Below the pieces are notes generated by a model that was given only the letters and a program-made list of their open reading frames with translations, was not told the origin of the DNA and made no database searches. Below are positions 11,416-17,585 of a stretch of 17,585 nucleotides of DNA, one piece after another; position 1 is the stretch's first letter; the number at the start of each line of letters is the position of its first letter. The position numbers and the translations under genes were made by a program. The stretch spans positions 1 through 17,585 of the forward strand of contig JBDRBK010000214.1 in NCBI GenBank assembly GCA_043822705.1. The letters run 5' to 3'. This stretch comes from Fidelibacterota bacterium (GTDB lineage: Bacteria > Fidelibacterota > Marinisomatia > Marinisomatales > TCS56).

Positions 11416-12815
11416 TGTTCAGAAAAGTGAAAAAAGTGCATTTTGTCGGTATCGGCGGCATCGGCATGAGCGGTATTGCCGAATTGCTGCTGAACCTGGA
11501 TTTCAAAATCAGCGGGTCCGATATGATGGATTCGGAGATCATCGAACGCCTGCACCGCCTGGGAGCGACAATTTACAAGGGCCATCGCGGCGATCAGGTC
11601 CGGGACTGCGACGTACTGGTCTATTCCAGCGCCGTTCAGGAGGATAATCCGGAGCTACAGGCCGCCCGGGAACAGGGCATTCCGATTATCCGGCGGGCCG
11701 AGATGCTGGGTGAGCTGATCGCCGTCAAGGAATTGAGCATCGGCGTCGCCGGCACGCACGGCAAAACCACGACCACTTCCATGATCGGCTCGGTGCTGTC
11801 CACTGCCGGACTGGATCCGACCCTGGTCGTCGGCGGTCTGGTGAAAAATATTGATACAAATTCGCGTTTGGGCGCCGGATCGGTGATCGTGGTGGAAGCC
11901 GATGAATTCGATCGCAGTTTTTTGGCCCTGCGCCCCACGATCGCCATTGTCACCAATATTGAGCTGGAACATACCGATTGCTACGCCGATCTGGAGGACC
12001 TGCAGGGCGCGTTCACCCAGTTCTGCAATTCCGCCCCCTTCTACGGGGCCATTATCGCCTGCCTGGATTCGCCGGGTGTCCAGGGAATCCTCAGTGAAGT
12101 AAAACGACCGGTCACCACCTACGGATTCTCCAACCAGGCCCAGTTCCGGGCGGAGAATATCCGGTACCAGGAAAGCACGACCAGTTTCAGCGTCATTCAG
12201 GAAGGCGTCGTCATTGGTGAAATCAGCCTCAATTCACCGGGCCGCCATAATGTGCTGAATGCCCTGGCCGCCGTGGCCCTGGGACTGGAAATGGGCCTCG
12301 AGTTCACCACGATCAGGGATGGGCTGGCCGCTTATCCCGGTGTGCGGCGGCGTTTCGAGATCAAGGGCGTCACCGGCGATATCATGGTCGTGGACGATTA
12401 CGCCCATCATCCCACCGAAGTAGCGGCCACCCTGCAGGCCGCCCGGAAGGGCTGGGACCGGCGCATCGTGGCGGTTTTCCAACCCCATCTGTTCAGCCGC
12501 ACCCGCGATTTCTACCGCGAATTTGCCACCGCTTTCCTGGCCAGCGATGTTCTGGTCGTCACCGACATTTATGCCGCCCGCGAGCTGCCGCAACCGGGGA
12601 TTACCGGCGAAATGGTGGCCCAGGCGGCCCGCGAATCGGGCCACAAACAGGTCAGCTACGTGCCTGATTTGGATGATTTGATTCCGCAACTGCAGGCGCT
12701 GATCCGGCCCGGCGATATGGTAATCACCATCGGCGCCGGCAATATCTGGCGCTACAGTGATAAACTTTACCAGGTGCTGGAAGGCAGTCTTCCGGACCAG
12801 GGCAACCATGGCTAA
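11415..12815 (+). CDS. murC: UDP-MurNAc:L-Ala ligase MurC
   Basis: HFVGIGGIGMSGIA, RAEMLGEL, AGTHGKTTTTSM, EADEFD, RRFE, DDYAHHPTEV and FQPHLFSRT motifs. Confidence 0.98.
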   Translation: MFRKVKKVHFVGIGGIGMSGIAELLLNLDFKISGSDMMDSEIIERLHRLGATIYKGHRGDQVRDCDVLVYSSAVQEDNPELQAAREQGIPIIRRAEMLGELIAVKELSIGVAGTHGKTTTTSMIGSVLSTAGLDPTLVVGGLVKNIDTNSRLGAGSVIVVEADEFDRSFLALRPTIAIVTNIELEHTDCYADLEDLQGAFTQFCNSAPFYGAIIACLDSPGVQGILSEVKRPVTTYGFSNQAQFRAENIRYQESTTSFSVIQEGVVIGEISLNSPGRHNVLNALAAVALGLEMGLEFTTIRDGLAAYPGVRRRFEIKGVTGDIMVVDDYAHHPTEVAATLQAARKGWDRRIVAVFQPHLFSRTRDFYREFATAFLASDVLVVTDIYAARELPQPGITGEMVAQAARESGHKQVSYVPDLDDLIPQLQALIRPGDMVITIGAGNIWRYSDKLYQVLEGSLPDQGNHG

Positions 12816-13572
12816 AATCAGGAAAAAGCGTAATCTCACGGCCTATGTCTGGATTGCCGGCCTGACCGTATCGCTGGCAAGTCTGGTGCTGGTGGCGTTT
12901 CACTGGATCGACCGCACCCAATTGCTGCGGCTGGAGCAGATTGCGATCTCCGGTAACTCGATTCTGACCGACCGGGAAATCAGCGAGCTGCTGGGCGACC
13001 TGTCCGGCAGTATTCTGCCTGAACTCAATTTGTCCGAGCTGACGGTGCAACTGGAAGCCCATCCCTACGTGGCCGCGGCCCGCCTGAGTGTCGGCTACCC
13101 GCACCTGCTGAAAGTCGAAATTATCGAACGCCAACCGCTGGTCATGGTCAACCAGGCCGAGCTGTTTCTGCTGGATCGTGAAGGGGTCTGCCTGCCGATG
13201 ATTCCCCAGGCCTTCGAATACCAGATTCCGGCCTTATCGGGATTCAATCCCGACCGGGACTTGTATCCGCTGGGCCGGCCGGCGGTCTCGGTGAAAATGA
13301 AGGAAACGATCCGGTTGTTACGGAATGTACACGATAACTATCCCGCCCTGTTTCGCGAATTATCCGAAGTGACGCTCAGTCAGGATGATGAATACATGCT
13401 GATTCTCACCAACCGTCCGACCAGAATCAATCTGGGGAAAGCATCAATCATGCGCAAGATCGCCACCCTGATGGCTTTCGACCAGGCTTTGCAGGGTCGC
13501 AAGGCATTGACCGATTATAATTATCTCGATCTGCGCTTCAGTAAACAAATTATTGCCCGGGAATGGTCATGA
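12808..13572 (+). CDS. ftsQ: Cell division protein FtsQ/DivIB
   Basis: Basic N-tail and single TM, POTRA-like region (IAISGNSIL...HPYVAAARLSVGYPHLLKVEIIERQP) and C-terminal YLDLRFSKQII. Start placed at ATG 12808 (MAKIRKK), overlapping the end of murC. Confidence 0.88.
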   Translation: MAKIRKKRNLTAYVWIAGLTVSLASLVLVAFHWIDRTQLLRLEQIAISGNSILTDREISELLGDLSGSILPELNLSELTVQLEAHPYVAAARLSVGYPHLLKVEIIERQPLVMVNQAELFLLDREGVCLPMIPQAFEYQIPALSGFNPDRDLYPLGRPAVSVKMKETIRLLRNVHDNYPALFRELSEVTLSQDDEYMLILTNRPTRINLGKASIMRKIATLMAFDQALQGRKALTDYNYLDLRFSKQIIAREWS

Positions 13573-14879: not shown

Positions 14880-16079
14880 ATGTTGTTTGAATTCGATTAC
14901 CTGGCCGAACAGAAAGCGAAACTGAAGGTCATCGGAGTTGGTGGCGCCGGTGGCAATGCCATCAATCGCATGATCCAGACCGGTATGCATGGCGTTGATT
15001 TCATTGCCATTAACACCGATGCCCAGGACCTGGAGAACAATGCGGCAATGCACAAGGTGCAGATCGGCAAGAGCCTGACCAAAGGTCTGGGTGCCGGTGC
15101 CAAGGCCGAGATCGGCCGCGAGGCGATTGAGACTGACAAGGAAGCTGTTCAGGCGCTCCTGGAGGATGTGGACATGGTCTTCATCACCGCCGGGATGGGT
15201 GGCGGGACCGGTACCGGCGCCGCCCCGGTGATCGCCCAACTGGCCCGGGAAATGAAGATTCTGACGGTCGGCATCGTGACCCTGCCCTTCAATTTCGAAG
15301 GCCCCAAACGGATGCAACGGGCCATCACTGGTCTGGTGGAATTGCGTAAAGCCTGCGATACGATGATAGCCATTCCCAACCAGAAATTGATGACCGTCGT
15401 CGATAAATCCACCACAGTCATGGAGGCGTTCAAAACTGCCGATTCAACCCTGCACCAGGCCGTCCAGGGAATTTCCGACCTGATCAACGTACACGGCTTA
15501 ATCAACTTGGATTTTGCCGATGTGGAAACGATCATGAAAAACATGGGTGATGCCATCATGGGTACCGGCGTCGCCAGCGGCGAGGAACGGGCCGTACTGG
15601 CCGCCCAACAGGCCATTTCCAGTCCGCTGCTGGACAATGCCCAGATCAGCGGCGCCCAGGGTGTGCTGGTAAACATCACCGGCGGTCCCGATCTGACGCT
15701 GATCGAAGTCGACGAAGCCACCTCGATTATCTTCGAAGAAGCCGGCCAGGATGCCAATATCATCTTCGGCGCCGTGATCGACCCCAGCATGACCGAAGAA
15801 ATCAGGGTGACCGTGATCGCCACCGGATTCAATCATTCCGATTTTGTCGAAGAGGAAAAACGCCAGCCGCAGCGCGCGGAACAGCGTTATGAAAGCCATA
15901 TCCCAGCCCACGCCGAGCATATCAATATGCCGCTGATCAGTCAGAAACAGAATAAGCAGTACGTCCCCGAACAACCGGCGCTGGCCGCAAAACCACGCTT
16001 CGTGTTCGATGACACCAATCCGTCACTGTTTGATAACGATCTGGAAATTCCGGCCTTTCTGCGGCAGCAGCATAAATAA
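14880..16079 (+). CDS. ftsZ: Cell division GTPase FtsZ
   Basis: GVGGAGGNA, tubulin signature GMGGGTGTG, INLDFADV and C-terminal core DLEIPAFLR. A clear SD (GAAGGAG) lies just upstream. Confidence 0.99.
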   Translation: MLFEFDYLAEQKAKLKVIGVGGAGGNAINRMIQTGMHGVDFIAINTDAQDLENNAAMHKVQIGKSLTKGLGAGAKAEIGREAIETDKEAVQALLEDVDMVFITAGMGGGTGTGAAPVIAQLAREMKILTVGIVTLPFNFEGPKRMQRAITGLVELRKACDTMIAIPNQKLMTVVDKSTTVMEAFKTADSTLHQAVQGISDLINVHGLINLDFADVETIMKNMGDAIMGTGVASGEERAVLAAQQAISSPLLDNAQISGAQGVLVNITGGPDLTLIEVDEATSIIFEEAGQDANIIFGAVIDPSMTEEIRVTVIATGFNHSDFVEEEKRQPQRAEQRYESHIPAHAEHINMPLISQKQNKQYVPEQPALAAKPRFVFDDTNPSLFDNDLEIPAFLRQQHK

Positions 16080-16101
16080 GTCCAACAACAACATAGATAG
16101 T

Positions 16102-16135
16102 AAAACCCATTTCCCAAATTCTGAAAATGGTTTTT
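16102..16135. terminator. Possible bidirectional intrinsic terminator after ftsZ
   Basis: Imperfect inverted repeat AAAACCCATTT(16102-16112)...AAAATGGTTTTT(16124-16135) with A/T tracts on both sides. It pairs better on the minus strand (extra G-U pairs). Confidence 0.45.
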
Positions 16136-16516
16136 GTAAATGGATCAATCGTTCGACAGTACCATCCAACGACCGGATTACTCTATCAAACTGATTTCTT
16201 AAGAATATAATTAACTTAATGAGCGATCATACAGTTCGCAAACGCTCAAAATTGATTTCAACAATTAGCTAAGTCAATCATATATTCTATCAAATAGCTG
16301 AACAGGATATTATGATGAGTGGTACATTAACTTAAACGTGGATTGAATTTTGGAAACCAAGTCGAATGTTTAATCAACTCATTTCAGTGTCGATGAAAAT
16401 GCCTGCTATAATTTTATTGATTTGTAATCCTCCCTGTATTTAGGGCCATTGATAATGCAAAGTACTCGGCTAAACTTGGAGCTGGAGTGTCCAAAAGAAT
16501 TAAAAGACGAACACTA

Positions 16517-16819
16517 ATAAATACACAATGGGGACCAAATCTGTTCGATTCAATCCCCACTCACTTTTAGATCGCCTTAGCTTTCTAACTGTGCCAAGCT
16601 ACGGTTAGCCCACCTTTCCCTTGCGGGAACAGCCGCTATTAATACTTTGTACCACCTGCCAGCCTTATTCCGACCACCATTACGGTTACTCCATCCGCAA
16701 TATATCTTTGCAGACATAGTGTTTCTGAAGTGGGCCGGTTTTCTGCCAGCATTAAGGACAAGTTTTTAAAAGAGCCTGCTTTTTCAAGCCAGTGTATTAT
16801 CTCTCACCTGGTGAAAGAT
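16517..16819 (-). ncRNA. Candidate ~300-nt highly structured non-coding RNA, family unassigned
   Basis: No ORF. Many nested helices found by eye, two GNRA-capped hairpins, a 5'/3' closing helix and G-U pairs valid only on the minus strand. Promoter directly upstream; 14-bp hairpin with U-rich tail at the 3' end. Confidence 0.65.
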
Positions 16820-16846
16820 GTTATAGTATAGCACAGAAAAAGTCAA
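16818..16846 (-). promoter_or_regulatory. Putative sigma70-type promoter driving the candidate ncRNA
   Basis: Minus strand: TTGACT (16846-16841), 17 bp, TAACAT (16823-16818). An overlapping extended -10 TG-C-TATACT (16833-16825) would start transcription at ~16819. Confidence 0.6.
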
Positions 16847-17059
16847 CCATTATTCAATGTTTTAACAAATCTGTTCTTAAAATATCCGACTCTAATAGGC
16901 TCACTCAATTCCAGTTAACTGGCTCCTGACCAGGTCTGGATCGAAACGGAGTAATGACGATCAAGATTGATGATACAGGTGTCCGAAAAGTCCAGGAAGG
17001 GGTATATCCGATTTTTTTATGTTAATATCCAATGATTAATTGAGATCCTCAAAGTTGTT

Positions 17060-17216
17060 CTATCCAGCTATTCTTTTATAAGCAGACACCATTATCTTGG
17101 GCTGCATGATCGTAATTTTACGCAGGTAGTGTGGGATGCATTCTGTGTATAGCAGATACTGATTTGTACTGCAAAATCGCTGTCAGCATTTATCCCACGA
17201 TGTAATTCTTGGATAG
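17060..17216 (-). ncRNA. Candidate bridge RNA/seekRNA in the IS110 non-coding end
   Basis: Begins 2 nt after the recombinase stop. Closing stem 17216-17210/17066-17060 (CUAUCCA/UGGAUAG). Long interrupted stem-loop closed by GUGGGAU(17198-17192)/AUCCCAC(17137-17131). Second, weaker stem-loop at 17125-17102. Confidence 0.5.
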
Positions 17217-17218
17217 GG

Positions 17219-17382
17219 TTAAGCGATTCCGACCTCATAGATTGTTTCGTTAAGTAGCACGAAGCGGATGCGTCGTAACAGTTTTCTTGCTATACGAATG
17301 ATAGCACGATTGCCATTCATGCGATTTGTCAAGTTTTGGTAGGTGCGAATTAGGCCTGGATCATTCCTTAATGCTGCCCAGC
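17219..17382 (-). pseudogene. IS110-family (IS116/IS110/IS902-domain) transposase/recombinase, C-terminal fragment
   Basis: Manual translation of 17380-17219: WAALRNDPGLIRTYQNLTNRMNGNRAIIRIARKLLRRIRFVLLNETIYEVGIA*. This fits the recalled IS110 C-terminal pattern W.A.R.DP....Y.....R....AI..IARKL..RI..VL.....Y. Absent from the ORF track because it has no suitable start. Similarity stops at 17382. Confidence 0.8.
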
Positions 17383-17585
17383 TGTTTCGCCGCGATTTTT
17401 GAACGATGTCGCATAAGCAGCATTTTATTCGCTATAATCCATTTCCGGTTAATTGGCAATGATTCTGATTTGACCAGTAAAGTCTACGTTGGTTACGTTG
17501 ACCGATCAATCGTTTTTTTCTTTCCTTCAGGATGGCTTCAGCCCGTCCCTCATGTTGATCAATGGGATGGACATATCCGATCCCG
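17383..17585 (-). mobile_element. Right end of an IS481/IS3-like DDE insertion sequence (continues beyond the window)
   Basis: Terminus reads TGTTTCGCCGCGATTTTTGAACG from 17383 on the + strand (TG/TGT end typical of IS3/IS481). It lies 49 bp past the transposase stop and exactly where IS110 similarity breaks. Confidence 0.68.
17432..17584 (-). CDS. Integrase-core (rve) DDE transposase, C-terminal 50 aa (partial, window edge)
   Basis: Manual translation: GIGYVHPIDQHEGRAEAILKERKKRLIGQRNQRRLYWSNQNHCQLTGNGL*. It resembles the recalled H..(I/L)G.V.P.....GR.E.IL..R tail of IS481/IS3-type transposases. Confidence 0.72.
   Translation of the reverse strand, partial: GIGYVHPIDQHEGRAEAILKERKKRLIGQRNQRRLYWSNQNHCQLTGNGL

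Follow-up and report, generated by a model that had tools for sequence, protein, structure and literature searches.

We found that the DNA beyond ftsZ in a member of the Fidelibacterota very probably encodes a real structured transcript, a non-coding RNA of ~295-303 nt predicted on the minus strand at 16517..16819 of the window (the whole stretch of DNA analysed, 17,585 nt), with a folding z-score of -5.6 to -6.3 and RNA contigs over 16555-16792 only. The RNA is uncatalogued and of a known broad kind, the abundant stand-alone structured RNAs; we tentatively favour the reading of a horizontally acquired, stable molecule that binds protein and works in trans, either as a scaffold or as a decoy.

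A discrete transcript downstream of ftsZ

Part of the region 16100-17000 is present in eight public sequencing runs from six studies, and six of the eight are RNA runs; three of these (X5, X6 and X8) have only small shares of it and are left out of the evidence. Four runs were placed on 16080-17050, namely the RNA runs X2, X4 and X7 from three studies and the DNA run X1; the records of the RNA runs give aquatic, estuary and groundwater habitats. The contigs of these three metatranscriptomes span 16555-16792, 16604-16759 and ~16568-16748, so that within the 971-nt stretch they lie wholly inside 16555-16792, and the flanking bins are empty in all three. The DNA run X1 gives one contig from upstream of 16080 to 16707, which crosses the flank. 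The summed contig depths of the RNA runs are 3.6, 4.6 and up to 37,450 (X7), values of contig depth that carry no housekeeping-RNA scale, strand or exact ends. The transcript forms a discrete unit that is plentiful in one community or more, at an uncalibrated expression level. An earlier sequence-only reading of this DNA had proposed an unannotated gene for a ~300-nt non-coding RNA, and the confinement of the RNA-run contigs to this stretch supports such a gene with its own transcript. The GC content of the gene is 44.6%, versus 34% and 39% in its flanks.

Both ends of the gene are predicted, the 5' end at 16819 or ~16812 and the 3' end at ~16520-16517. A candidate sigma-70 promoter on the minus strand (16818..16846), with TTGACT (16846-16841) and TAACAT (16823-16818) spaced by 17 nt, would place the start of the RNA near 16812-16809, and a start at 16819, where the 5' hairpin begins, requires an alternative, overlapping extended -10 element, TGnTATACT (16833-16825, minus strand), seen by eye. 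The promoter that had been proposed is present in the DNA, but such sites occur at chance frequency (four found in our scan versus 4.3 expected) and the one in question points to ~16812-16809 rather than to 16819.

Predicted fold and natural variation

Over 16510-16825, the minus strand folds at -108.8 kcal/mol (z -6.31) with none of 100 dinucleotide shuffles as good, as against a z of -1.35 for the plus strand, which is equalled by eight of 100 shuffles; the fold is better than chance on the minus strand only. The minimum-energy fold has 101 pairs in 303 nt, with about two-thirds of the bases paired, and 15 of the pairs are G-U, a type of pair that had been taken from the sequence to mark a minus-strand RNA. 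The folding asymmetry between the strands and the pattern of natural substitutions (see below), both indirect readings of strand, support an origin of the RNA from the minus strand. By these calculations the end helices supply much of the z-score, which becomes -5.2 when the 5' hairpin is left out and -1.8 for the core (16791-16562), which lacks the 3' hairpin and the closing helix as well. For comparison, the tmRNA, 6S-like RNA and RNase P RNA of the same genome give z-scores of -4.8, -5.1 and -2.5, respectively, and among ORF-free 303-nt windows of the genome (188 available) four of the 64 tested reach z <= -5, all four looking like repeats, palindromes or terminators.

The preferred fold, which is a thermodynamic prediction and not a covariation model, is a multi-way junction sealed by the closing helix 16798-16792/16526-16520 (16520..16798; pair probability 0.95, all elements on the minus strand). 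The junction is preceded by a 5' hairpin of 9 bp (16799..16819; 0.98) that forms only with a start at 16819. Within it, the model places a short 6-bp hairpin with an A-rich loop (16773..16790; 16790-16785/16778-16773, 0.84) and a 130-nt long arm (16639..16769; z -2.8 alone), whose helices (16763-16758/16650-16644 and 16751-16745/16663-16657, probability 1.00; 16738-16733/16675-16670, 0.89) are spaced by symmetric 6x6 internal loops, one being AGAAAA/AAUAAG, and whose tip domain (16732-16676) has competing alternative folds. These are joined by an arm (16597..16638; 16638-16606 in the preferred fold) bearing the GNRA-capped hairpin UUCCC-GCAA-GGGAA (16629-16616; 0.93), the base of which competes with a hairpin at 16610-16597, and by a 32-nt arm (16562..16593; 0.97-0.98) made of CAC/GUG, UUAGA/UCUAA and a small capping hairpin. 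The terminal hairpin of 15 bp (16527..16561; 16561-16547/16541-16527, 0.99) is terminator-like with a weak U tail, and this U-tract also serves as the 3' side of the closing helix. Two pseudoknots may form in addition, 16632-16627/16546-16541 and 16700-16695/16626-16621.

All ten helices named in the sequence-only reading are complementary at their coordinates, and about half of the fold drawn from them is probably wrong, judging by the calculated ensemble. The 5' hairpin, the closing helix and UUCCC-GCAA-GGGAA reappear there at the probabilities given above, as does the helix GUCUGCAA/UUGCGGAU at 0.64. The uninterrupted 14-bp 3' helix holds and extends to 15 bp, with only the U tail after it falling short, and the GCUU-GAAA-AAGC hairpin survives in a shifted register (16790-16785/16778-16773, 0.84) rather than in the one proposed (0.10). 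CUUUUA/UAAAAG, CCUUA/UAAGG, GGCCCACUU/AGGUGGGCU and CACUAU/AUGGUG each have an ensemble probability of 0.00. The long nested central rod is not supported, and the model of the sequence-only reading, when forced, reaches -91.9 versus -108.8 kcal/mol, i.e., ~17 kcal/mol dearer. The CCUUA/UAAGG helix is also broken by a natural variant at 16577.

The sister strain in X1 carries five substitutions within 16517-16707, three of which recur in X7. Four of the five fall at predicted unpaired sites and one, in the hairpin 16610-16597, converts G-U to G-C; none is a double change. The variant at 16577 turns the UAAG loop of the 16562-16593 arm into UACG, a UNCG tetraloop. Measured on the minus-strand fold, the five substitutions break 0.03 expected pairs versus a null mean of 2.56 (P=0.0027), in a post hoc test that uses one X1 strain contig of depth 4 and covers the 3' two-thirds of the RNA; the three variants common to X1 and X7 give P=0.026. 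The same test gives P=0.35 with the plus-strand fold and P=0.43 with the helices of the sequence-only reading. This pattern is the best evidence for selection on the predicted minus-strand fold, which it supports; the substitution density of the RNA equals that of the flank (2.6 versus 2.7 per 100 nt), so no purifying selection on the sequence is visible.

A probable IS-damaged insertion between ftsZ and rpmB

The RNA gene lies 440 nt from its convergent neighbour ftsZ (14880..16079, plus strand), the last gene of the dcw cluster, names that we assign from sequence motifs and gene order. On the other side lies the 3' part of an IS110-family element (17015..17386, minus strand), comprising the transposase C-terminus (Pfam PF01548, PF02371) and a 3' non-coding end, with 84% identity to an intact copy on contig C115. 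It is split by a second IS end encoding the C-terminus of an integrase-core protein (17387..17585, minus strand), which breaks the contig and of which the same 140 bp are found at the ends of four other contigs. The IS110 element continues, from the corresponding position, at the end of contig C133; beyond it come a small inverted-repeat element, an orphan ORF of 159 aa, rpmB and then GNAT-like and dusB-like genes. From this continuation we infer a join across the two contigs, by which the RNA would lie within several kb of AT-rich, IS-damaged DNA inserted between ftsZ and rpmB. Among eight family relatives, ftsZ is followed directly by rpmB in six and by other DNA in two, and the RNA is found after ftsZ in none of the eight within the 0.55-1.5 kb downstream examined. 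The gene is single-copy in its genome and lies outside the IS110 element. Convergence on ftsZ had been noted from the sequence; we regard this link as incidental, since the insertion that holds the RNA is specific to the lineage and the gene stands 440 nt beyond the stop codon of ftsZ.

Several other elements of this accessory DNA deserve mention in their own right. A promoter-and-leader-like element on the plus strand (16404..16515), with TGCTATAAT at 16404-16412, points at the 3' end of the RNA; this leader-like element of ~80-110 bp is present in three places, all in AT-rich accessory DNA (16404-16515 and diverged copies at C133:33961-34040 and C41:58865-58930), and the C133 copy directly precedes an ORF whose N-terminus is secretion-like. 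The element might act as an operator or as a small RNA that regulates in cis. The orphan 159-aa ORF (L119:3472-3948, minus strand; C133:33947-33471) has no Pfam match and an N-terminus that we take to be twin-arginine-like and lipobox-like; it was considered as a partner of the RNA across the IS debris and rejected, as it has no homologue among proteins of 87-279 aa. Strain X1 has 33 extra bases at 16101-16106, which form a GC-rich hairpin with a run of T downstream of ftsZ. These bases are missing from the window, where a deletion between 6-bp repeats seems to have removed them, and the dcw transcript may terminate less well there. The ~200-nt 3' non-coding end of IS110 (17015-17218, minus strand; L002:1501-1711) is 84% conserved between two copies and is presumably the place where IS1111-type elements encode their bridge/seek RNA. 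Finally, C94:10800-16620 holds several copies of a ~170-bp structured repeat (z ~-9), two of them in tandem near 12570-12950.

Searches for homologues and relation to known RNAs

Rfam 15 gives no match at the gathering cut-off over the whole window, and closer scans return only noise (E > 1.6 in 15900-17200 and E > 7.9 in 16505-16830); no family is matched at this locus. RNase P, tmRNA and SRP RNAs are each found above cut-off on another contig and none of them here, which agrees with the absence of their hallmarks noted from the sequence. The same holds for introns: the group I model RF00028 has no match at E <= 10 on contig C214, which carries the RNA, no host gene is interrupted, no group II domain model of Rfam matches at the locus, and we saw no domain 5 of the usual consensus by eye. 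There is no tRNA in the window. With no Pfam remnant in the six-frame translation of 16080-17020 and no downstream ORF of at least 60 aa on the minus strand, the view that the RNA is not a riboswitch is supported; a decayed protein gene was likewise rejected, there being no Pfam match and no paralogue.

No homologue was detected by BLAST in 61 relatives (seven short matches of 18-28 nt), in 401 genomes of the phylum, in ~1,030 genomes of four other phyla (301, 232, 301 and two largely overlapping sets of 201) or in five single genomes and phage and plasmid collections, the phage set comprising 50,697 records. Two BLAST matches in the other phyla lie inside protein genes (one with what we take to be an hsdR-like start) and were discarded as chance. 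A covariance model, R1, made from the single sequence and our structure and run with a loose first filter and low sensitivity, gives only weak partial matches in 101 relatives and 151 genomes of the phylum. Twelve pattern scans with guessed conserved motifs, in collections that may lack the records nearest to this genome, covered viral contigs (eight scans), metagenome contigs (two) and genome contigs (two); three were empty, and of the loci returned by the others (1, 18, 2, 60, 119, 54, 21, 67 and 96, one of these counts being an "at least") none extends beyond the seed by nhmmer or R1. Related genomes, in which the sequence-only reading had proposed to look for homologues, thus yield none below strain level, and no homologue below ~95% identity was found in ~1,400 genomes or the 12 pattern scans. 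As such searches are weak for diverged RNAs, the result is to be read as "not found" and not as "absent". None of the publications that we found describes an RNA of this sort from the phylum; unnamed candidates may sit in the supplements of large screens.

The scans also returned loci of separate interest. Twenty-one metagenome loci that share ~28 nt were rejected as homologues, being a Pseudomonas intergenic region beside the sRNA P1. That region (L399, L413, L419 and 18 more) lies between two glutamine-synthetase-like genes and has on the other strand an apparently decayed gene with a conserved core of ~60 nt. A group of viral loci (L122, L123, L125, L128, L182, L196 and others) shares a ~40-nt motif with two GGCTAC boxes around a C run and a terminal hairpin, which among the matches listed stands, in many phage contigs, directly 5' of a ribosome-binding site that belongs to one gene. 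It has no Rfam match in the 16 loci scanned and is a candidate cis-regulatory RNA or operator, unrelated to the RNA described here.

The closest likeness in kind is to the raiA motif RNA (RF03072), which PMC10861870 presents as an independent, very abundant structured transcript of 200-300 nt with no known partner protein or function; ours is similarly a stand-alone, multi-helix, abundant independent transcript. The raiA model, however, has helices P1-P6, two pseudoknots and 51 conserved positions and does not match our locus (no match on C214 at E <= 10, a threshold to be read with the fact that no control genome reached the cut-off either), and raiA RNA occurs in >2,500 species of Bacillota and Actinomycetota, as a rule flanked by raiA and comFC, whereas ours was seen in one species, between ftsZ and IS debris/rpmB. 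ROOL, in PMC12286853, is as abundant as 16S rRNA and yet non-essential, and ROOL and GOLLD travel on mobile DNA with no function described there. Like these and OLE, the RNA here is an abundant structured RNA, but it is half their size or less, has no Rfam match, has no tRNA beside it in the window and has no match in the phage records or the eight viral-contig scans. The 6S RNA (RF00013) is an abundant trans-acting decoy, and the long arm of our RNA is an irregular rod with internal loops; 6S, in contrast, is an unbranched rod of ~180-200 nt with a central bubble, whereas ours is branched, longer and without an RF00013 match at the locus. The genome moreover has a 6S-like gene of its own elsewhere (C98:26837-27044, minus strand), with conservation in a relative from the family, which RF00013 misses and which is 81% identical to a sub-threshold match in the relative G004; the 6S RNA of this phylum appears to be poorly covered by Rfam.

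Possible roles of the RNA

What we see is a single-copy gene in an accessory insertion with a discrete transcript; its mechanism is what we infer. There is no exact match of at least 15 nt between the RNA and the rest of the genome, and 13-14-mers are fewer than in shuffles, so no guide or antisense target is evident. As there is no cis gene, no visible guide and no reverse transcriptase or nuclease partner, a folded trans-acting RNA is the simplest role, and the earlier preference for a trans-acting RNA over a riboswitch stands in so far as no gene lies downstream, its trans mechanism being conjectural. We therefore place the scaffold or decoy reading first, at somewhat under an even chance. 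The RNA would work in trans as a folded molecule and not as a message or guide. Its sealed 5' and 3' ends and the hairpins at both ends would resist exonucleases and let it accumulate. The RNA could hold a host protein by the GNRA-capped arm and the purine-rich loops inside the long arm, or these elements could dock with one another. The RNA might then serve as the scaffold of a ribonucleoprotein or, by titrating its partner, as a decoy, which is how RNAs of the raiA, ROOL and 6S types have been proposed to work. Against this stand its narrow range, one species so far, unlike the phylum-wide raiA or 6S, the core z of only -1.8 and a substitution density no lower than that of the flank.

The RNA could instead be the orphaned half of a mobile-element or defence ribonucleoprotein whose protein gene has been deleted, i.e., a DRT2/retron-type ncRNA, an IS200/IS605 omega/reRNA or an IS110 bridge RNA, which we consider unlikely. 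HEARO/omega, retron/DRT and bridge RNAs share with ours the size range, an own promoter and a mobile-DNA setting, and its branched fold also fits this group. The insertion is AT-rich and strewn with IS debris, a lost gene may have left its trace in the 440 nt downstream, and the genome is only 93% complete. However, that DNA has no Pfam remnant in six frames (16080-17020), no reverse transcriptase gene lies directly downstream, and neither RVT_1 nor TnpB is found in this 93%-complete genome, with positive controls giving matches. The genome search for IscB carries no weight, its control having been silent; the six-frame translation shows neither TnpB nor IscB adjacent to the RNA gene. There is no match to HEARO or related Rfam families, the gene is single-copy, and it was rejected as a part of the adjacent IS110, which ends at 17015, ~170 nt before the promoter.

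A bolder proposal, which we rate as distinctly unlikely, makes the RNA the first representative of a class, not described before, of compact bacterial RNAs with a tertiary fold, which would move between genomes without a protein partner and be very abundant in subsurface and estuarine cells. Its long arm would dock two loops like the hairpin ribozyme, with another partner, and it may be catalytic or self-assembling.

It is improbable that the RNA is a base-pairing sRNA that regulates mRNAs in trans via short loop seeds. The own promoter, the terminator-like hairpin and the lack of a cis gene would suit one, and short seeds are invisible to an exact-match count; against it, two-thirds of the bases are paired, complementarity to the genome is not in excess, and the RNA is long and branched for this type. 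Just as improbable is a functionless transcript from a chance promoter in AT-rich foreign DNA, kept by its end-protecting hairpins. It would account for the chance-level promoter count, the core z of only -1.8, a substitution rate equal to that of the flank, its having been found in one species only and the four of 64 ORF-free windows that fold as well. The avoidance of predicted pairs by the substitutions (P=0.003), the strong strand asymmetry, the 15 G-U pairs, a closing helix that joins 5' and 3' strands 270 nt apart and detection of the RNA alone in three studies argue against it.

We consider it still less probable that the transcript is a structured mRNA, encoding either a peptide of 13 residues or a type I toxin that an antisense RNA, made on the plus strand from the 16404-16412 promoter, would oppose. 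A GGAG (16692-16689) stands 8 nt before an AUG at 16680, opening a 13-codon ORF in the long arm (16639..16692, minus strand), and 5'-3' pairing with a convergent promoter-like site is reminiscent of type I toxin-antitoxin loci. This ORF is probably not translated. The peptide that it would encode is short and makes no hydrophobic helix, and its one variant (16655) is non-synonymous. Further, the plus-strand leader is also found at two unrelated loci and, as a weak point, no RNA contig covers 16419-16554.

The least probable reading is a ribozyme, suggested by analogy with the helix/loop and strand order of the hairpin ribozyme in the long arm, where a loop-B-like AGAAACA (16726-16720) would face AUAUAUUGC (16705-16697), with AGAA at 16744-16741; by the numbering of the canonical ribozyme, G8 would be 16743, A22-A24 16724-16722, C25 16721 and A38 16703. 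Six of the seven invariant positions of the hairpin ribozyme (G8, A22, A23, A24, C25 and A38, with G+1 invariant in 941 natural examples; PMC8216279) can be placed by eye, but the position of G+1, which in the ribozyme pairs with C25, is an A (16666), the loop A counterpart is 6x6 and not 4x4, RF00173 and RF04190 have no match at the locus at E <= 10, the loop-B-like module competes with a 9-bp helix of probability ~0.6, the likeness was chosen from many known motifs, and the RNA is a single chromosomal copy and not a circular RNA, with no circular joints seen in the contigs.

The weight of the RNA, which we tentatively read as a trans-acting scaffold or decoy, is limited by its narrow distribution and the absence of a functional clue. 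Its expression in three independent environmental studies and its fold-respecting variants are features that most candidates lack, and its ~300 nt are short enough for immediate synthesis in vitro and for probing or imaging. Large structured RNAs such as raiA, ROOL, GOLLD and OLE have repeatedly given new folds or real phenotypes, and abundant RNAs restricted to one uncultured lineage, like the one described here, are missed by comparative screens.
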